Shown here: positions 19,343-29,538 of the stretch, piece by piece | Numbering within the stretch: position 1 is the stretch's first letter | Layout: each line of letters opens with the position of its first letter | Assembly: GCA_030603365.1 (NCBI GenBank) | Contig: JAUVXV010000006.1 | Span: 64,001 to 128,000, forward strand | Length of the DNA stretch: 64,000 bases | From: Candidatus Heimdallarchaeota archaeon | Lineage (GTDB): Archaea; Asgardarchaeota; Heimdallarchaeia; Heimdallarchaeales; Heimdallarchaeaceae | Direction of reading: 5' to 3' | Program-made: the position numbers and the translations under genes | Notes under the pieces: model-generated | What the model saw: only the letters and a program-made list of their open reading frames with translations | Told to the model about the DNA's origin: nothing | Database searches by the model: none

Positions 19343-20815
19343 ATGTCAAAACTAGATTTAGATAAACTAAAACCATTCTTGTTGAGTGCAGCAAATATCC
19401 TAAGAGGAAGTATTGACTCAGCTGAGTATAAGCATTACATCTTTGGTTTATTGTTTCTTAAACGTCTATCTGATCAATTTGATGATGAAAGAAAGGAAGT
19501 TAAAGGAAATCCAGAAGATCCTGATAATTACCAATTTTTTGTTCCCCAACGAGCTAGATGGTCATCAATTAGAAAAGTTTCAGAAGGAATAGGAAACGCA
19601 ATTGACAAAGGATTTGAAGCCCTAGAAGAGGATAATCCAATTCTGGAAGGAGTTCTAACTCCTATACAATATGAAGACCCAAGAAAGTTAAATGATGAAG
19701 CATTGAATAAATTGATAGTACATTTCAGTAAAGAAGGATACAATCTTGCTAATTCCAATCTTGCGGAACCAGATATACTTGGAAGAGCCTATGAATACTT
19801 AATAGCTGAATTTGCAGACGATGCCGGAAAGAAAGGTGGAGAATTTTATACTCCCAATGGAGTTGTAAGATTATTAGTTAGAATCCTTAAACCTGAAGAA
19901 GGTATCCGTATTTGTGATCCTGCTTGTGGTAGTGGAGGGATGTTAATAGAATGTACTCATTACTTGAAAGAGCAGGATAAGAATCATATGAATATTTCAC
20001 TTTTTGGTCAAGAAAAGAACCTTAACACCTGGGCAATTGCGAAAATGAATCTTCTTTTACATGGAATTCTAGATGCAAGAATTGAAAGAGGAGATACAAT
20101 GTCTGAACCTAAACTTGTTGAAGATAGTTTTTTAATGCTCTTTGATATAGTAATAGCAAATCCCATGTGGAATCAGAAAGAATGGAGTAGAGAGTTGTTT
20201 GAAGCTGGAGATCCATATGGGAGAGCTAAATATGGTGTTCCTTCAAAAAGTTCAGGAGACTGGATGTGGATTCAGCATATGTTAGCAACACTGAAATTTG
20301 ATGGCAGATTAGGTGTAGTTCTTGATAACGGAGCATTATTCAGAGGAGCTAAAGAGGGGAAAATAAGAAAAGGAATAATTGAAGATGATCTAATTGAAGG
20401 AATTATTGCTTTACCTGCTAACTTATTCATGAATACTGGATCGCCAGGTTGTTTAATAATTTTAAACAAACAAAAAGACAAAATATTAAGAAATAAAATC
20501 TTCTTTATTCATGCGGAAAATGAGTATGAAGAAGGAAAAGCACAGAATTTTCTAAGAGAACCACATATCAATAAAATTGCAGAAACATATCACAAGAAGA
20601 ATGTTAAAGAAAAATTCTCAGATTTGATAGATATAGAAGAAATAAAAGAAAATGATTACAATCTAAATGTCTCAAGATATGTTGATATCTTACCAGAAGA
20701 AGAACTAATTGATCTAGAACAGGTTTTGAAATCTTTAACAGAGATAAAACAAGAAAGAGAGAAACTAGAAGAGGAATTTCATAAAAATATGGTGGAACTA
20801 GGATATGAAAAGTAG
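19343..20815 (+). CDS. hsdM: Type I R-M methyltransferase subunit (copy 2, NPMW motif)
   Basis: ANILRG, GKKGGEFYTP, DPACGSGGML, ANPMWN in place of NPPF, YNLNVSRYV. Confidence 0.92.
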   Translation: MSKLDLDKLKPFLLSAANILRGSIDSAEYKHYIFGLLFLKRLSDQFDDERKEVKGNPEDPDNYQFFVPQRARWSSIRKVSEGIGNAIDKGFEALEEDNPILEGVLTPIQYEDPRKLNDEALNKLIVHFSKEGYNLANSNLAEPDILGRAYEYLIAEFADDAGKKGGEFYTPNGVVRLLVRILKPEEGIRICDPACGSGGMLIECTHYLKEQDKNHMNISLFGQEKNLNTWAIAKMNLLLHGILDARIERGDTMSEPKLVEDSFLMLFDIVIANPMWNQKEWSRELFEAGDPYGRAKYGVPSKSSGDWMWIQHMLATLKFDGRLGVVLDNGALFRGAKEGKIRKGIIEDDLIEGIIALPANLFMNTGSPGCLIILNKQKDKILRNKIFFIHAENEYEEGKAQNFLREPHINKIAETYHKKNVKEKFSDLIDIEEIKENDYNLNVSRYVDILPEEELIDLEQVLKSLTEIKQEREKLEEEFHKNMVELGYEK

Positions 20816-22079
20816 TTTCATTAACATAGAAATTCCAAAGGAATGGCAAGTCAAGAGAATCAAAGATGTCTGCATTATTAATTCTGAGAATTTAAACCTC
20901 GATAAACTAAATGATTTTGATGAAATTTGCTACATAGATATTTCTAGTATAGATACTCAAAACTACCGAATACAAAAATACCAAAAAATACCAAAATCAA
21001 CTTTACCGAGTAGAGCTAGGAGAATAACAAAGAAAAATAACATAATTATTTCAACAGTGAGACCATATCTAAAAGCAACTGCTAAGATTGAAGCCAAACA
21101 CGATTATTTTGTGTGTTCAACTGGATTTGCAGTACTAGAAGCTAAAAATCAAATTGACCATGATTTTCTTTTTCAATGGGTTCTAGGTGAGAAATTTGTT
21201 AATTATTTAATATCTAATATGGTTGGTTCGAACTATCCAGCTGTAAATACTAAGGATATTGAAGACGGTCCTGTAATATTACCTCCTTATTCTGAACAGC
21301 AAATTATTTCCTCTATTCTCTCCAATGTTGACTCCATCATCCACCAAACTCAACAACTCATCAATAATTTGCAGCTCTTGAAGAAAGGATTGATGCAACA
21401 GCTCTTCTCTCAAGGAATAGGGCATAAGGAGTTTCAAGATACGAAACAAGGAAGGATACCTAAAGAGTGGGAAGTTGTGAAACTCGAACAATTAATTGAA
21501 GTAAAAAGTGGTAAAAGACTTCCCAAAGGTGAAAAATTTTCTAAAATACAAACTAGTTATCCATATATAAGAGTTCTAGATTTCAAAGATGGAACAATCA
21601 ATCTTAATAATTTAGAATATTTAACCCCTCAACTAAAGAAGATTTTGAATAAATATACGATTTCATCTGAGGATGTTTATATCTCAATTGCAGGCTCAAT
21701 TGGGATTGTTGGTCTGGTTCCAAATGAACTAAATAATGCTAATCTTACAGAAAATGCAGCTAATCTATCAATTAAAGAAAAGAAAAAATTGACTAAGGAG
21801 TTTCTGTACTATTACCTTGATTCAAGCATTGGACAAAAAGAAATTCGACTCAGGAAAACTATAACAACATTACCAAAATTAGCCTTTAAAAGAATAGAAA
21901 AAATTCCAATCGTCTTACCATCCATTCATGAACAAAAACAATTAACCTCTTTTTTGATAAATTTAGATCGAATCATAGAAGAAGAAATAGTTAATCTAAA
22001 TGAACTTATGAAAATAAAACAGGGGCTTATGCAAAATCTACTCACTGGGAAGAAGAGAGTTCCGATATCATTAACATAA
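20805..22079 (+). CDS. hsdS: Type I R-M specificity subunit (two TRDs)
   Basis: IPKEW occurs twice, PP..EQ..I, LKKGLMQQL / KQGLMQNLLTG conserved regions. Confidence 0.93.
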   Translation: MKSSFINIEIPKEWQVKRIKDVCIINSENLNLDKLNDFDEICYIDISSIDTQNYRIQKYQKIPKSTLPSRARRITKKNNIIISTVRPYLKATAKIEAKHDYFVCSTGFAVLEAKNQIDHDFLFQWVLGEKFVNYLISNMVGSNYPAVNTKDIEDGPVILPPYSEQQIISSILSNVDSIIHQTQQLINNLQLLKKGLMQQLFSQGIGHKEFQDTKQGRIPKEWEVVKLEQLIEVKSGKRLPKGEKFSKIQTSYPYIRVLDFKDGTINLNNLEYLTPQLKKILNKYTISSEDVYISIAGSIGIVGLVPNELNNANLTENAANLSIKEKKKLTKEFLYYYLDSSIGQKEIRLRKTITTLPKLAFKRIEKIPIVLPSIHEQKQLTSFLINLDRIIEEEIVNLNELMKIKQGLMQNLLTGKKRVPISLT

Positions 22080-22211
22080 TATCTTATTTTGAAGGTTCAG
22101 CAATATTATTACTTGAGAATCTTAATAGCAATGCAAAATCTTACAAAACTTAAAATAGAGATATAAGATTTAAGTAAAATGTTAATTGATTAAGAAAATG
22201 CTGGTGATTTA

Positions 22212-25200
22212 GTGGATTTAGTCAAATGGAATGAAAAAAATGAATCAGAAGAGCCTGCACTAAAACTTCTAGAACAACTAGGATATCTAAGAAGGTTAGC
22301 TGATGAACTCACTAATTTATCATCAGAAGCTGAAAGAACTTCACTTAGGCAAGTAATTCTTTTAGAAACTCTTAAGCAAAAAATGAAGGATCTGAATCCT
22401 TGGATAGATGACACCAATATTAAGAATATAATTAGAGATTTAACTATTGTTTCTACATCCAGTCATACTGAATCCAATGAGCTAATCTGGCAATATTTCT
22501 CTAAGAAAGATAAGCTCTTTGTTGATCAAGACTTCAAAGACGGCAAAGGTCGTCGCAAGAGAGGAGTCACGTTAATTGATTGGGATAATCCAGAGAACAA
22601 TGATTTCACTGTTACTGATCAATTCAAAGTCAATGCTCCTAAAGGCAATCGTATTCCTGATATTGTTGTTTTCATTAATGGTCTACCTTTAATTGTCATC
22701 GAGTGTAAGAGTCCTATAATTACTAATCCTCTCACTCAAGCCATTCGTCAAGTACGAGAATATCAAAAAACAATTCCCAAACTCTTTCATTACAATCAAA
22801 TTATCATTGTTACTTCTGGACAATCTGCTAGATATGGTGTTATTGGTAATTCTTATGAAGAATACAAATCTTGGAAAGAACCTTATCCTATCAATATCTC
22901 AGAACTAGAAGAGATTGTTAAGAAGACAGGTAGGAAAAATCCTTCTCCTACTCCTCAAGATATCACTCTTTACGGTTTGTTGGAAAAACGAAATCTCCTA
23001 GATCTCATTCGTAATTTCATTATTTACGAAACTAGACATGGAAAGAAAGTAAAGAAAATAGCTCGATATCAGCAATTCCGAGCTGTTAACAAAACTGTGA
23101 ACAGAATACTTACTGAGAAAGATGTTCATCAAAGAGGTGGGACAATCTGGCACACTCAAGGTTCAGGTAAATCCCTTACTATGCTCTTTACTGCTATAAA
23201 GCTTAAAAGAGAAAAATCTCTTATGAATCCTCTTCTTGCCTTCGTTACTGATAGGATAGATCTTGTCAGACAACTCAGAGATACTTTCGATAATTGTGGT
23301 TTTTCAAATCCACAAAAAGCTAAGAATGTTGATCATCTGCAGGAATTAGTCAAAACAGGACAGGGGATTACTATTTTTACTACTATCCAGAAATTCCATA
23401 CTCGAGATGCTGATAGACGAACAGGCATTTCTAGAACTGGGATGGTTTTTCCTGAATTAAACAGTGATGAAAATATTATTGTTCTTGTTGATGAAGCTCA
23501 TCGTTCTCAATACAAGTACTTTGCAATTAATCTGAGAAAAAGCATGCCTAATGCAGCTTATATTGCTTATACTGGAACACCTTTAGCCAAAAATGAGAAA
23601 AACGAAAGAATGACAGTTGGTAAAGGAAAAACTGTTCGAACCTTTGGCTCATTCATAGATATTTATGATATCCGTCAATCTGTTGAAGATGAAGCAACTG
23701 TCAAGATTCTATACGAAAGTCGATTGTCTGATCTTCGCTTGGAAGGAGAAACCATTGATGAAATCTTCGAGAGAGTATTTGCAAATTTAACAGTTGCAGA
23801 ACGCGAGAAGATCAAGAATAAGTACGCAAACGTTGATGCTATACTTGCAGCTGAAGAACGAATTAAGAGAATAACTCTAGATATAGTTGAACATTACACA
23901 CAGCATATTTTACCTAATGACTTCAAAGCTCAGGTTGTGGTAAATAGTAGAGAACTAGCTGTTAGATACAAGAAATACCTTGAACGATTTAATGCCCCTG
24001 AATCTGTTGTGATAATATCTGCTAATCCTCGATATGATGAGGAGTTAAAGAAGAAATATGAAGTTGATTTTGTAACTGATAAGTCTAAACAAGATTTAAT
24101 GATTGACCGATTTAAAGATCCTGAAGACTCATTGAAAATTCTTGTTGTTTGCGATATGCTAATCACTGGTTTTGATGCCCCAATCGAGCAAGTCATGTAC
24201 TTGGATAAATCTTTAAGAGAACACACTCTGCTTCAAGCTATCGCAAGGGTTAACAGAACCTATGAAAATAAAACTCATGGTCTAATCGTTGATTACTATG
24301 GTGTCTCTAACAATCTTGAAGAGGCTTTAGAAATCTTTGATAAACCAGATATAGAAGGTTTCATGAAAGATATTAAGACCGAATTACCCAAACTTGAGCA
24401 ATATCATCGCAAAGCTATAAGCCACTTTGAGGGATTTGATTTAACTGATTTGAACAATTGTGTTTTAGTTTTGGAACCTGAGGATACTAGGGCTAGTTTC
24501 CATCATGATTGTAAGAAATTTGCACAAACCCTAGATATAGTACTACCTGATCCTGCTGGAGAGAAGTACTTGCCTGATCTTAAGAAACTTGGAGAGATAG
24601 TTATAGCTGCTCGTAATCGTTTTAGAGAAGAAAGTCTTGATATTGTAGGTTTTGGTGGTAAAGTACGAGAGATTATAGATGAACACATTCGCGCAACCAA
24701 GATAATCCAACTAGTTGAGCCTGTTTCTATTTTATCTGACAAATTCAATGAAGTTCTTGAAGCTCTGAAAGATGAAAAAGCTGTCGCAAGTGAGATGGAA
24801 CATGCCATAAAACATCAAATCACGATTAAGGTTATAGAAGACCCGGCATTTTATACGAGTTTAAGAAAAAGACTAGAAGAGATAATCAAAGAGTATAAAG
24901 AGCATCGAATAAGTCTTGCTGAAAAGATAAACAAACTCAAAGCAATTGCTCAAGATATAAAAGCTAGACCTGATGTAGCAAAATTTCTAGGTTTGAATAC
25001 AGCTGAGATGGCCTTCTATAATATTTTCAAGAGAGAGTTAGAAGAAATAGAAATAAGTGATAGCAGAGAGATAGTCAGGTTTACTTATGAGACCCTGGAG
25101 AGTATAGAACCCCTAGTCTCAATCGTTGATTGGCATCTCAAATCAGATATTCTAAGACAAATTAGAAGAGCCTGTAAGCAAAAGTTCTTTGAACTTCAAG

Positions 25201-25286
25201 AGGAATTTCCAATTCCATCAGAACTACATCAAGCTCTTTCGCAACAGATTGTTGAATTAGCTAAAGTCCACTTTGTTGCTAGTTAA
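22212..25286 (+). CDS. hsdR: Type I R-M restriction subunit
   Basis: PDIVVFINGLPLIVIECK nuclease motif, HTQGSGKS, DEAHRSQY, TGTP, QAIARVNR. Confidence 0.95.
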   Translation: MDLVKWNEKNESEEPALKLLEQLGYLRRLADELTNLSSEAERTSLRQVILLETLKQKMKDLNPWIDDTNIKNIIRDLTIVSTSSHTESNELIWQYFSKKDKLFVDQDFKDGKGRRKRGVTLIDWDNPENNDFTVTDQFKVNAPKGNRIPDIVVFINGLPLIVIECKSPIITNPLTQAIRQVREYQKTIPKLFHYNQIIIVTSGQSARYGVIGNSYEEYKSWKEPYPINISELEEIVKKTGRKNPSPTPQDITLYGLLEKRNLLDLIRNFIIYETRHGKKVKKIARYQQFRAVNKTVNRILTEKDVHQRGGTIWHTQGSGKSLTMLFTAIKLKREKSLMNPLLAFVTDRIDLVRQLRDTFDNCGFSNPQKAKNVDHLQELVKTGQGITIFTTIQKFHTRDADRRTGISRTGMVFPELNSDENIIVLVDEAHRSQYKYFAINLRKSMPNAAYIAYTGTPLAKNEKNERMTVGKGKTVRTFGSFIDIYDIRQSVEDEATVKILYESRLSDLRLEGETIDEIFERVFANLTVAEREKIKNKYANVDAILAAEERIKRITLDIVEHYTQHILPNDFKAQVVVNSRELAVRYKKYLERFNAPESVVIISANPRYDEELKKKYEVDFVTDKSKQDLMIDRFKDPEDSLKILVVCDMLITGFDAPIEQVMYLDKSLREHTLLQAIARVNRTYENKTHGLIVDYYGVSNNLEEALEIFDKPDIEGFMKDIKTELPKLEQYHRKAISHFEGFDLTDLNNCVLVLEPEDTRASFHHDCKKFAQTLDIVLPDPAGEKYLPDLKKLGEIVIAARNRFREESLDIVGFGGKVREIIDEHIRATKIIQLVEPVSILSDKFNEVLEALKDEKAVASEMEHAIKHQITIKVIEDPAFYTSLRKRLEEIIKEYKEHRISLAEKINKLKAIAQDIKARPDVAKFLGLNTAEMAFYNIFKRELEEIEISDSREIVRFTYETLESIEPLVSIVDWHLKSDILRQIRRACKQKFFELQEEFPIPSELHQALSQQIVELAKVHFVAS

Positions 25287-25324
25287 TATATGAAAGTGTC
25301 TATATACTATTAAGAGGAACTGCC

Positions 25325-26071
25325 ATGCCTAAGACTTCTCCAAAAATCAGTTTCGGTGAAACGAGTTTTGCTTATTCTATCATTAGAACAAATAGAACTA
25401 CAATAGCTATCATTGTTGAACCTGATGGTAGTGTTATAGTTCGAGCTCCTTATGATCTATCTGAAGAAACCGTTGAAGAAAAAGTAAGAGAGAAGAGGAG
25501 ATGGGTAGCAGAAAAACTCACTAAAACTGATGAAATAGTTAAACCTGTACCTAAGAGAAGAGAATTAGTAAGTGGGGAAAAGATCAAACTCAAGGACAAA
25601 CTAATCAGATTGAAAATTCACCATTTCGATAAAAGAAGAACTGTAGTAGAATTAGACAAAAATACTCTTCATATCTATATTAATAAGGATTTGAATGAAT
25701 TAGAAAGAAAAGAGGAATTGAAGAAAGTTCTCTTGAAATGGTATAAAGAACAAGCAAAAGATATCATTTCTACTAGAGTTGATAAATTCTCAAAATCATT
25801 TGATCTTAAACCAAACGGGATAGTTATTAGAAGTCAACAACTGAGATGGGGGAGCTGTACAAAGAATAACATATTGAACTTCAATTGGCGTATTGTAATG
25901 GCGCCTATTTCAGCAATAGATTATATTGTTGTTCATGAATTGTGTCATCTCAAAGAACCTCTTCATTCAATTGAATTTTGGAATTTGCTAGAATCACACT
26001 TCCCTGAATACAATAAATGGAAAGAGTGGTTAAGAATAAATGGTTTAACTCTTGATTTAAAATTTGAATAA
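25325..26071 (+). CDS. YgjP/DUF45 (M48-like) metal-dependent hydrolase, common neighbour of hsdR
   Basis: RWGSC, LNFNW, DYIVVHELCHL (HExxH), H...FW. Confidence 0.88.
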   Translation: MPKTSPKISFGETSFAYSIIRTNRTTIAIIVEPDGSVIVRAPYDLSEETVEEKVREKRRWVAEKLTKTDEIVKPVPKRRELVSGEKIKLKDKLIRLKIHHFDKRRTVVELDKNTLHIYINKDLNELERKEELKKVLLKWYKEQAKDIISTRVDKFSKSFDLKPNGIVIRSQQLRWGSCTKNNILNFNWRIVMAPISAIDYIVVHELCHLKEPLHSIEFWNLLESHFPEYNKWKEWLRINGLTLDLKFE

Positions 26072-26148: not shown

Positions 26149-26694
26149 GTGTGTTTCAAACAAATTAAAAATATCTTGAAAAAGAAGAATAAACCAAGTA
26201 TTTATGATTACAATCTTACAGATAAGGAATACTATGGTAAGAGTAAAAAATCGTATGAAAAAGATAAATATCAAGATCACCTAATTGATCAATATCGGAT
26301 ATTAACTGATAAAGCTGATAGAATAAGTGATAAAAGAGCAGTTACAAATGGTTTTTTTCTAACACTAAACACAATTATTGGAACAGCCAGCATAGTTCTA
26401 ATTGACATAATTAGTAATTCTTTATTCATAATACCTCTAAGTGTAATTGGCATACTGTTCTCATTGCTTTGGTTTGGTATGATAAGGAATTATAAGAAAT
26501 TAAATACAGCAAAGTTCAATGTAATCAATAAGATTGAAGAGAAATTACCTATAAAAGGCTTTTATGCTGAATGGGAAATTTTAAAGAAAAAGATGAAATA
26601 TAAAGGATTATCAGAATTTGAAAAATGGATTCCTTGGTTCATTATACTAATGTATTGTGTGTTAATAGGATTCTCTATTTATTCATTTGTATAA
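26149..26694 (+). CDS. Three-TM membrane protein, candidate pore-forming effector (resembles RipA-like small integral membrane proteins)
   Basis: QY....ADRISDKR..TNGFFLTLNT, two TM helices, Y..LN.AKF.VI..IEEKLP...F..EW, terminal TM helix. Confidence 0.65.
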   Translation: MCFKQIKNILKKKNKPSIYDYNLTDKEYYGKSKKSYEKDKYQDHLIDQYRILTDKADRISDKRAVTNGFFLTLNTIIGTASIVLIDIISNSLFIIPLSVIGILFSLLWFGMIRNYKKLNTAKFNVINKIEEKLPIKGFYAEWEILKKKMKYKGLSEFEKWIPWFIILMYCVLIGFSIYSFV

Positions 26695-26750: not shown

Positions 26751-27152
26751 ATGGCAATGATTTATGTTTGCTATGAGAGTGGAGATATAAAATATAGAAA
26801 TGATTTCGCTAGCATGATGCTTAATCAAAATAATCAAATTACAGATATACCTGTTACAGATAAAGAAAATAAACGTCCAGAAGGTCCTGAAGCTGTTAAG
26901 AGATATATTTTAAGCTTAATGAGAGATTGTGCTGCAGTAGCTGTATTAGTTGGTAGAAACACACACAATGCTCCGGTTGTCCGATGGGAACTTGAAGTGG
27001 CAAATTCTCAAAACAAGAAAATACTCGCGATTAAAATTCCTACTACTTCAGGAGGACTTCCTCCTTTATTAAAAACGATTGGAATTCAAACAATTGAGTG
27101 GGATCCACAACTGATTGAGGAAGAATTATCCAGATTATTCGGTAGAGAATAG
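26751..27152 (+). CDS. TIR-like domain protein (DUF1863/ThsB-like), copy 1
   Basis: IYVCY, VAVLVGRNTH...VRWELEVA with the catalytic-position Glu, IEWD. Confidence 0.8.
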   Translation: MAMIYVCYESGDIKYRNDFASMMLNQNNQITDIPVTDKENKRPEGPEAVKRYILSLMRDCAAVAVLVGRNTHNAPVVRWELEVANSQNKKILAIKIPTTSGGLPPLLKTIGIQTIEWDPQLIEEELSRLFGRE

Positions 27153-27168
27153 AATAAATGTGATTGAT

Positions 27169-27423
27169 ATGATGGATAAGAAATGTATGTTTCGAAAACC
27201 TGAATCGCCTAAATGTCAAGAAGAAGGGTTCAATTGTTTAGAACTGAAAATGTTTCATCCTCTAACTGAGAGAAATTCAAAACAAATTTGGTTTTTATGT
27301 GATGAGCACCTAGATAAATTTCTTAAGACAGATGGGAAGGATTGGATTAAATGGAAGAAGGAGGAGAAAAACAAAATGAGCATTAGCTATGTATTGGATT
27401 TCAAAATTAATTATCTACTCTAG
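27169..27423 (+). CDS. Small Cys/His (putative Zn-binding) protein
   Basis: In-frame ATG at 27169; C-x9-C-x6-C...CDEH; lies within a co-directional cluster. Confidence 0.5.
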   Translation: MMDKKCMFRKPESPKCQEEGFNCLELKMFHPLTERNSKQIWFLCDEHLDKFLKTDGKDWIKWKKEEKNKMSISYVLDFKINYLL

Positions 27424-27444: not shown

Positions 27445-28044
27445 GTGCAAAGAATGGAAAAAGTAGTAGTTTTGATGTCAGGTGGCATAGATTCTTTTCT
27501 AATGTGTAAAATTCTTTCTGAAAATTATGAACTATATCCCCTTTTTGTGGATTATGGGCATTTAGCAGCTAATCAAGAACAAAAAACTGTTTTGAAACAA
27601 ATAAAATTTCTCAATCTTAATTCAGCAAAATTGGTTAAAATCCCTGACTTAGGACTTAAAAATAGTTTAACTTTAGAAGAAGAATATAAAGATGATTTTT
27701 ATCCAGGAAGGAATCTTCTCTTGCTTATAATAGCTGCACAATTCGCCATAGGAATGAATATAGAAAGGATTGCTTTGGGTATAATAAGGAGCGAAAGAGT
27801 TTTTTCAGATTCCACTTCGTTTTTCATTCAAAGAGCTGAACAATTAATTTCTGATAGCGTTAATAAACAAATGACTATTTTCACTCCAATTTCTGATTTA
27901 CAAAAGAATGAAGTTGTAGAGTTAGCTAAAGAGCTAGAACTACCTCTTAGTCATTCCTACTCTTGTCAAAAAGGAGATTTGAAAGAATGTGGCAAATGTC
28001 TTTCATGTCTGGAATTAGATAAAGCTATTTTAGAAAATAAATGA
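27445..28044 (+). CDS. QueC-like (7-cyano-7-deazaguanine synthase family; Cap9-like) PP-loop ATPase
   Basis: SGGIDS PP-loop, DYGH, YPGRNLLL, SYSC...CGKCLSC Zn site; only 199 aa, with FSDST where canonical QueC has YPDC. Confidence 0.88.
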   Translation: MQRMEKVVVLMSGGIDSFLMCKILSENYELYPLFVDYGHLAANQEQKTVLKQIKFLNLNSAKLVKIPDLGLKNSLTLEEEYKDDFYPGRNLLLLIIAAQFAIGMNIERIALGIIRSERVFSDSTSFFIQRAEQLISDSVNKQMTIFTPISDLQKNEVVELAKELELPLSHSYSCQKGDLKECGKCLSCLELDKAILENK

Positions 28045-28120: not shown

Positions 28121-29017
28121 ATGAAAATACTTAAGCAATTCGGATATGGGAGAATAGTTGAATTGAAAATTAATAATCTTCAGAGATACACTCCAATGTT
28201 TATTCCTGCTTTATCGAGTGCAAGTAGAAAAAACGATTTCTTAAATGCTAAAAGATGGGTAAAAAGAGTAAAACCTGTGGATTTCTTAATTTCAGCTTAT
28301 GATTACATAGAAGATTTTAAGGATCTAAAGATTAAGAAAGATTCTTTTGTAACATTAGACAGTGGGGGTTATGAGCTCAGAAACATCATAAAACCAAAAC
28401 AATGGACTCTTGATTCTTATTTAGAGATAATTGATAAAATCCATCCAGATATGATTATATCCCTTGATCATCCTGAAAACAACTTTACTCAATCAATTAG
28501 CTGTTTTGAGCAAATAAAAGAAAGCTATTCTAACAATTCTTATCTACAATTCGTAATTGCTGAAACTAAAAAAGAAAAGATCCCAGATTCAGTAATAAAT
28601 ACTTTACAACTGATTGAACTAGATGTTATTGGGATTCCAGAAGTGAATCTAGGAAAAAATCTAGAAGAAAGATTACAAAGTATTCAGTCTATAGTTAAGA
28701 TTCTTAGCTCTATGCAGAATCCAACCCTTCTACATATCTTAGGCTGCAGTGATCCTGAGATGATTAAGAAATATGCATTATCTGGAGCAGATATATTTGA
28801 TGGGCTAGGTTGGTATAGACAAGTTGTTGATATTTCAGATAATGAAAACTTTAAATTCACTAATTTCGCAAATTTGGATAGTGATTGTGAATGTAAAGCA
28901 TGTAAATTAACACTAACTGAAGACTATGAAGAAAAGGTTTTTGCTCACAACTACTTAGCTTATTATGCTTTGATGGAACAAATAAGAGAGATGATTATCA
29001 AAGGAAGTGAAATCTAA
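28121..29017 (+). CDS. tRNA-guanine transglycosylase-like protein (Cap10-like)
   Basis: TPMFIP, DSGGY, LHILG, ADIFDG, CECKAC...HN Zn site; lacks the C-terminal PUA domains of archaeal ArcTGT. Confidence 0.82.
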   Translation: MKILKQFGYGRIVELKINNLQRYTPMFIPALSSASRKNDFLNAKRWVKRVKPVDFLISAYDYIEDFKDLKIKKDSFVTLDSGGYELRNIIKPKQWTLDSYLEIIDKIHPDMIISLDHPENNFTQSISCFEQIKESYSNNSYLQFVIAETKKEKIPDSVINTLQLIELDVIGIPEVNLGKNLEERLQSIQSIVKILSSMQNPTLLHILGCSDPEMIKKYALSGADIFDGLGWYRQVVDISDNENFKFTNFANLDSDCECKACKLTLTEDYEEKVFAHNYLAYYALMEQIREMIIKGSEI

Positions 29018-29538
29018 TGGGTGGAGGAAGCAGTGGAGTATATAATCCACCAAGTAGATCGGCGACATATGGAAAAGATTTAAAGAATCAAGCAAATGAA
29101 AGTATAAGAAACACAGAAATGAGATTGCAAAGGAGACTTACTGATTTTTCCTATGAACCCCGTAATGTGTTCATCAGCTTTCATACTGTGGATGAAATGC
29201 AAGTAAAGCTCTTAAGATACCAAGCAAAGGATGATAGATTCGATTTTGCTTTTCGGGATTATTCAGTTCAAGAACCTTTCTCAGATAAATGGAAAACGAG
29301 AGTAAAAGAGAGAATAAAGAGAAGTGATTATACTATTTGCTTGATTGGTGAAGATACACATTCTAGAGAAGCTGTTAATTGGGAATTGAATCAAAGCTAT
29401 AAAATGGATAAGAAGGTAGTTGGTGTTAGAATTTATCGTGATGCAAAACACAAAATACCAGAACCAATAAAGAGAAATAAATCAAAAGTAGTTGACTGGA
29501 ATCTTGGAGATATCATGGAGCAATTATCTGAAGAATAA
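29017..29538 (+). CDS. TIR-like domain protein (DUF1863/ThsB-like), copy 2, with Gly-rich N-terminal extension
   Basis: Starts MGGGSSGVY; RNVFISF, DYSV.EPF, TICLIGEDTHSREAVNWEL, VVDW; TAATG overlap with the TGT-like gene. Confidence 0.85.
   Translation: MGGGSSGVYNPPSRSATYGKDLKNQANESIRNTEMRLQRRLTDFSYEPRNVFISFHTVDEMQVKLLRYQAKDDRFDFAFRDYSVQEPFSDKWKTRVKERIKRSDYTICLIGEDTHSREAVNWELNQSYKMDKKVVGVRIYRDAKHKIPEPIKRNKSKVVDWNLGDIMEQLSEE

Follow-up and report, generated by a model that had tools for sequence, protein, structure and literature searches.

A glycine-tipped ThsB-like TIR protein beside Cap9- and Cap10-like genes in a Heimdallarchaeota genome is a candidate acceptor for deazaguanylation

The 64,000-nucleotide stretch of Candidatus Heimdallarchaeota DNA analysed here (the window) contains six co-oriented genes, which encode an 8xMP membrane protein, a TIR protein (TIR-1), a small Cys/His protein, a QueC-like enzyme, a TGT-like enzyme and a second TIR protein with a glycine-rich N terminus (TIR-2). 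We asked whether this N terminus could be the substrate of the two enzymes, given that in type IV CBASS the modification NDG is carried on Gly2 of CdnD (bioRxiv 10.1101/2025.04.06.647259), and whether related loci support such a role.

The TIR-2 extension and its operon

TIR-2 begins with MGGGSSGVYNPPSRS (MGGGSSGVY), and a preliminary description of the locus had assigned its start to an ATG that overlaps the TGT stop codon. This assignment was borne out. The Shine-Dalgarno-like GGAAGTGA has a pairing energy of −9.3 kcal/mol with the host anti-SD, placing it in the top 1.1% of plus-strand ATGs in the window (n=1196), and overlap or abutment of the TGT and TIR-2 genes recurs in syntenic loci. 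The internal in-frame Met of the tail is residue 35, and translation from this codon, so that the extension would never be made, is scarcely credible and was rejected: the region upstream of the Met35 ATG pairs with the anti-SD at only −0.1 kcal/mol, the closest orthologue (L157, 87% identical) has GAA (Glu) at codon 35, and L150 has no internal start ahead of the TIR fold. Comparison of codons 2–35 in TIR-2 and L157 gives 10 synonymous changes and 6 non-synonymous ones, most of them in the third codon position. As judged from sequence, the extension is real, translated from Met1 and under purifying selection.

The ThsB_TIR domain (PF08937, E 2e-16) spans residues 52–141 in Pfam and the first strand of the fold lies at residue 49 in the AlphaFold2 model, and thus 48 residues precede the fold, matching the earlier estimate of about 48. 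The same model predicts a helix at residues 18–40 (pLDDT about 60). PADLOC also assigns TIR-2 to ThsB, ThsB TIRs are the top Foldseek matches of its model and E123 is invariant in sets of 75 and 47 homologues. Among 3427 host-genome ORFs of at least 100 amino acids the MGGG start is unique to TIR-2, and starts of this type dominate among 120 TIR-2 homologues. TIR-1 had been described as tailless, and its fold indeed begins at residue 3–5 both here and in six syntenic loci; neither TIR-1 nor the small Cys/His protein carries a Gly tip. The proposed likeness of the TIR-2 tail to the tip and helix of type IV CBASS holds in part. The tip resembles the CdnD acceptor and a helix follows, and Gly2 lies behind Met1 on a disordered tail as in an NDG substrate, Met1 being predicted to be removed, but MGGGSS departs from the strict motif M(G/S)G(G/S)GG at positions 5–6. 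Only 6/56 QueC-linked TIR tails match that motif.

The best PDB match of the operon QueC is Cap9 (9NTO, E 2e-14), ahead of canonical QueC, and that of the operon TGT is Cap10 (9NTN, E 4.5e-11), with PADLOC matches of 4e-34 and 2e-31, respectively. The QueC keeps the SGGIDS loop (S12–S17), R89–N90, F120/D122 and the zinc cysteines C174/182/185/188. F120/D122 occupy the positions of Cap9 Y115/D117, with Phe in place of Tyr and with D122 invariant in 42 homologues, and the enzyme reads FSDS where Cap9 reads YYDC. The TGT keeps D80, S81, D116, H205 and D227, corresponding to Cap10 D73, S74, D122, H226 and D248, together with the zinc site, and the base-reading Asp/Ser and the nucleophile are kept across its subclade. 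Its Ala147 falls in a column that holds Lys in CBASS-linked relatives and Ser, Asn or Pro in orthologues; Cap10 K154 itself lies in an unaligned gap of the Cap10 (9NTN) alignment, so that K154 is mapped to Ala147 only indirectly. A weak match to DpdA (E 0.004) was also found. In trees the operon QueC groups with defence-type QueCs apart from the housekeeping QueC of the host, and specifically with TIR-linked QueCs and a set linked to MBL-fold proteins (support 97), and the operon TGT groups with CBASS Cap10s and the MBL-linked set (98 SH-aLRT).

Two variants of enzyme arrangement were seen in related loci. A second TGT paralogue, with DSGG and the catalytic Asp kept, directly follows TIR-2 in four of them (L001:6512-7465, L152:588-1526, L158:4310-5248 and L160:2917-3855), and a TGT–QueC fusion in one reading frame lies upstream of a tailed TIR at L120:1350-2831.

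An 8xMP homologue adjoins 72/78 well-flanked TIR-2 relatives. The small Cys/His protein is a possible zinc binder, fixed between TIR-1 and QueC in a subclade that lacks Cap11/OGG. Pfam and PADLOC searches detected no OGG-like (cap11) gene among the six operon genes and no CD-NTase gene in the operon or flanking genes; only about one in three type IV CBASS systems carries cap11, which was not treated as essential. Directly upstream of the operon lies a complete type I restriction-modification set (M, S and R by motif and size; window positions 19343–26071) with a YgjP-like metallopeptidase, forming a defence island.

The host shares its GTDB class with Candidatus Heimdallarchaeota HM7_B34 (G072, locus L001). 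With this query, only one genome besides the host, among 83 of the class, yielded a full-length orthologue, and 0/24 congeners did, so the cassette is patchy. A host cluster at C1:140561-144196 contains queC, queD, GTP cyclohydrolase IB and a queE-like gene, so CDG should be available, and the host also encodes an archaeal TGT and two MetAP-like genes. Since separate canonical copies exist, we rejected the idea that the operon QueC and TGT are housekeeping archaeosine genes.

Features of the operon and of TIR-2, in window coordinates
Feature	Position	Strand	Remark
8xMP (PF24838) membrane protein	26149..26694	+	Likely effector
TIR-1, ThsB-like, tailless, WE motif	26751..27152	+	
Small Cys/His protein	27115..27423	+	No family match; same position in six syntenic loci
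Cap9-like QueC	27445..28044	+	199 aa; true start perhaps Met4
Cap10-like TGT	28121..29017	+	
Shine-Dalgarno-like GGAAGTGA	29003..29010	+	Within TGT gene end, 6 nt ahead of TIR-2 ATG
TAATG stop/start overlap	29015..29019	+	Couples TGT to TIR-2; one base shared
TIR-2 ORF	29017-29538	+	173 aa
TIR-2 residues 1–17, Gly-rich tip	29017..29067	+	Disordered, pLDDT <50
Gly2, predicted deazaguanylation site after Met removal	29020-29022	+	Putative acceptor, by analogy with CdnD
TIR-2 residues 18–41, helix	29068..29139	+	Predicted to dock in QueC/Cap9 cleft
ThsB-like TIR domain of TIR-2	29161..29538	+	Glu123 at 29383-29385

Distribution of tip and helix in related loci

Related loci were recovered by an alignment search (a single-sequence genome scan gave none), and 146 of them, including some near-duplicates (for example L015/L122), were classified by our own thresholds. 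All 57 loci with a QueC nearby, the window included, encode a Gly-rich extension, nearly always with a helix-forming stretch. The 50 distinct tails of this class have an aromatic residue at positions 6–11 in 47 cases. About 40 loci have a TGT-like gene and no QueC nearby; 22 of them offer at least 2.5 kb of upstream sequence (for 16 of these the flanks reach at least 4.4 kb on the upstream side and 3 kb on the downstream side) and 18 are short. Their TIR proteins start with MGGG, with Gly2 in 34/37 tails, and the tails are Arg-rich in 33/37; the tail of one such relative formed no helix in a low-confidence model. The TGT-like proteins of these loci form a separate clade that lacks equivalents of D80, H205 and D227 as well as the zinc site. 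Where neither gene is present, a Gly-rich tail occurs in 0/27 loci. Tip and helix therefore follow different partners, the tip tracking TGT and the helix tracking QueC.

The preliminary description had proposed testing whether MGG correlates with a neighbouring queC, and the correlation fails, because MGGG is kept in loci that have only a degenerate TGT-like gene. The conservation of Gly2 itself is mixed. Residue 2 is Gly in 37/50 QueC-linked tails, but Ser, Ala, Thr or Val in the other 13, and among nine close orthologues seven start with MGGG and two with MNSGG. In these two loci (L155:6001-6519 and L159:2574-3092) the QueC and TGT motifs look intact and Met is probably retained.

Compared with profiles of the two classes of tail, the window tail reaches 19.9 bits with the QueC-linked profile and 8.0 bits with the QueC-less one, and by sequence it is of the QueC-linked rather than the Arg-rich type. 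A simple helix-propensity score is an imperfect discriminator of the two types of tail (medians 0.36 and 0.43, with a p-value that ignores relatedness). In a tree of TIR cores (FastTree, few columns) all tailed proteins fall on one side of a branch with support 85. This corresponds to about one gain, and the counts of tails and accessory genes are therefore not independent evidence. In this tree the tail dates back to the ancestor of a broad ThsB clade whose members are mostly archaeal, and since a single branch splits tailed from tailless TIRs, a recent graft in the window lineage was rejected.

The QueC-less loci (L002, L004, L011, L012, L042 and about 35 more, mostly archaeal) share a module of degenerate TGT-like protein, Arg-rich MGGG TIR and 8xMP. 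In two MAGs carrying it no full-length QueC was found genome-wide, which for MAGs is not proof of absence. In Methanosarcina hadiensis (L169, G083:C1:1933896-1934417) a second Cap9-like QueC, of the CBASS type, lies roughly 0.5 Mb away from the QueC-less TIR module, on which it may act in trans.

The idea that a portable tag had been grafted onto a TIR thus survives only in its first half: the tail is ancestral rather than newly acquired, but a similar tip and helix occur on CD-NTases and on MBL-fold proteins. The window TIR core is sister to the TIRs of common TGT-OGG-QueC-TIR operons, and the archaeal type IV CBASS loci L162 and L163 have the same QueC-TGT-partner order as the window. In four further loci an OGG-QueC-TGT cassette precedes an MBL-fold hydrolase (L161:4663-10635, L174:4664-8782, L175:674-6615 and L176:613-6554) that has an HxHxDH motif and an N terminus of MG and a Gly/Ser tip followed by a predicted helix-like stretch. 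A beta-propeller or SIR2 gene sometimes lies before the MBL gene, and a membrane protein gene lies after it. These cassettes are a candidate undescribed deazaguanylation system whose acceptor is neither a TIR nor a CD-NTase. The occurrence of tip and helix on both CD-NTases and MBL-fold proteins is consistent with a portable tag without establishing one. A wider and decidedly tentative scheme would make tip plus helix a transferable tag read by one QueC/TGT family on three or more unrelated signalling folds, namely CD-NTase, TIR and MBL-fold hydrolase, with the helix as the address for Cap9 and the tip as the ligand for Cap10. The sister TIR clade would then have kept the tip after losing QueC, helix and TGT catalysis, to become a tag-free switch, and the MBL cassette would be a deazaguanylation-controlled defence.

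Predicted tagging of TIR-2 and its alternatives

To the question of what the extension does, the answer we consider probable, largely by analogy, is that Gly2 of TIR-2 is deazaguanylated and that the extension serves the Cap9/Cap10-like pair as a substrate tag in two parts. We modelled QueC with TIR-2 (residues 2–173), ATP and zinc. The complex reached an ipSAE of 0.75, compared with 0.01 for the best of three controls. The score mark used is reached by 58/80 solved complexes and by 2/110 mismatched pairs, counts that are only roughly valid here because we supplied our own alignments and small molecules. The runs share at least 65% of contacts with a partner pLDDT of at least 73, and the confident interface sets TIR-2 18–41 against QueC 20–27, 107–108 and 142–164. 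QueC residues I23, R108 and Q142 align with or adjoin Cap9 M29, L104 and S135, mutation of which abolishes CBASS defence. In the model the TIR-2 helix thus docks in the QueC cleft where helix 1 of CdnD binds Cap9, although the score may be owed in part to likeness to the solved Cap9–CdnD complex. Residues 2–17 were placed without confidence, so the model does not bear on entry of the tip into the QueC active site.

A plausible sequence of events can be outlined. Met aminopeptidase would remove Met1 by its general rule and expose Gly2, and helix 18–41 would dock in the QueC-like cleft. QueC would then activate host CDG with ATP and ligate the base to the Gly2 amine to give NDG. The tagged tip may enter the base pocket of the TGT-like protein, with TIR-2 held inactive or primed until infection, and the TGT-like protein may transfer tagged TIR-2 to a target through Asp227. 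Active TIR-2 would, as in Thoeris, use Glu123 to turn NAD+ into a signal that opens the 8xMP effector. What the sequence itself shows is the start codon, the bipartite tail, the retained catalytic residues and the linkage of the genes; the docking comes from the model, and the other steps are drawn from type IV CBASS. Besides CdnD, an NDG peptide has been detected on QatB, by peptide MS only and not by intact mass, and without reconstitution with CDG (PMC13279940, PMC13639016). Several features speak against tagging. The MNSGG orthologues have intact-looking QueC and TGT, the TGT subclade appears to have no Lys154 counterpart, FSDS replaces YYDC in the QueC, and MGGGSS departs from the strict CBASS motif. 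As MGGG persists in about 40 QueC-less loci, a Gly tip alone does not imply tagging chemistry.

This last observation would suit an explanation that we regard as unlikely, in which the Gly tip serves mainly, and without modification, as a peptide ligand through which the TGT-like partner holds or senses. QueC would then bind the helix as scaffold or regulator and leave the tip untagged. The tip tracks the presence of TGT rather than QueC, MGGG is strongly kept where the TGT-like partner lacks catalytic residues and zinc site, the two QueC-less MAGs yielded no full-length QueC, and the window TGT appears to have no Lys154 equivalent. Yet the window tail belongs to the QueC-linked and not the Arg-rich type. 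None of the ATP loop, the Asp and aromatic residue that bind the base, or the zinc site has been lost from the window QueC, and throughout its subclade the TGT retains the Asp/Ser residues that read the base, along with the nucleophile. The exceptions at residue 2 could instead mean that QueC acylates an N-terminal amine that need not belong to Gly2, or uses a base other than CDG, whether a different carboxylate or an archaeal variant of 7-deazaguanine. MNSGG starts, the 13 of 50 tails with Ser, Ala, Thr or Val, the altered pocket residues (QueC FSDS and TGT Ala147) and the failed reconstitution of QatC with CDG would all be accommodated. We give this version little credence: unlike QatC, the window QueC keeps the Cap9 Y115/D117 pair as F120/D122, the Asp of which is invariant in its homologues, and Gly2 is present in the window copy and in 7/9 orthologues.

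Very improbable is a tail that is only a relic or plain linker, with QueC and TGT acting on free preQ0, on tRNA or DNA (as Dpd does) or on the small Cys/His protein, and TIR-2 an ordinary ThsB. The weak DpdA match and the single inheritance of the tail, which allows passive carry-along, would suit it. Against it, no other dpd gene was seen among the neighbours of these loci, the host has a housekeeping QueC and an archaeal TGT besides the operon copies, a Gly tip is absent from both TIR-1 and the small protein, selection on the tail is purifying, and the controlled model supports binding of the TIR-2 helix by QueC.

Should deazaguanylation of TIR-2 be confirmed, the protein would become the first NDG-bearing TIR to be tested and a first example from archaea. 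With a 173-residue enzyme and an NAD+ read-out, it would also provide a small system for studying the function of NDG and the target to which Cap10 transfers it. Natural variants (the QueC-less MGGG loci, the MNSGG orthologues and the MBL-tailed cassettes) would serve as ready controls.

Relation to known systems

By sequence, the window cassette is not QatABCD. In both, a QueC-family enzyme has a disordered Gly tip at the N terminus of a partner protein as its likely substrate, the tail MGTS of QatB sits in the QatC active site (PMC13279940, PMC13639016), and the QatB tip likewise departs from the strict CD-NTase motif. In contrast, QatC has about 20 kDa of additional mass and its pocket is remodelled, QatABCD has neither TGT nor TIR, the window QueC scores 26 bits against the QatC profile (cut-off 280), and PADLOC found no qatA or qatD in the operon.

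The cassette is not type IV CBASS (bioRxiv 10.1101/2025.04.06.647259; Wassarman et al., Science 2025) either, because it has no CD-NTase. With that system it shares a Gly tip followed by a predicted Cap9-docking helix, the QueC ATP loop and base pocket, the TGT Asp/Ser/Asp, His and nucleophile Asp, and the gene order of the archaeal loci L162 and L163. It differs in placing the predicted tag on a TIR, in its MGGGSS tip, and in a TGT with apparently no Lys154 equivalent and with a zinc site that is absent from Rhizobiales Cap10. The QueC-less TGT-like/TIR/8xMP module (for example L002, L011 and L042) has the same TIR clade, MGGG tip and 8xMP effector, but an Arg-rich, helix-less tail, a TGT-like partner without catalytic residues, and no QueC.

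The closest description concerns Thoeris operons with cap9, cap10 and cap11 (Fig. 6G and S10B of bioRxiv 10.64898/2025.12.03.692087), for which, in the available parts of that preprint, AlphaFold3 predicts TIR–Cap9 and TIR–Cap10 contacts like those of the CD-NTase. There as here, a ThsB-type TIR and an effector are linked to cap9 and cap10 homologues, and the predicted TIR–Cap9 complex resembles CdnD–Cap9. The window lacks cap11/OGG and has a second, tailless TIR and the small Cys/His protein, a QueC-TGT-TIR order, an 8xMP (PF24838) effector and a host in the class of Heimdallarchaeota HM7_B34. The available parts of the preprint contain no analysis of the tail or of a QueC-less form, and its supplements, as far as available, list no Cap9, 8xMP or Heimdall entries. 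A literature search found no experimental test of Cap9/Cap10 Thoeris operons, and an Asgard defensome paper does not mention QueC. As the arrangement was already predicted in that preprint, the surprise is limited and the window cassette is a further example rather than a new system. What the present comparison appears to add is that the tag divides into a tip linked to TGT and a helix linked to QueC, together with natural exceptions and the lead provided by the MBL-tailed cassettes.
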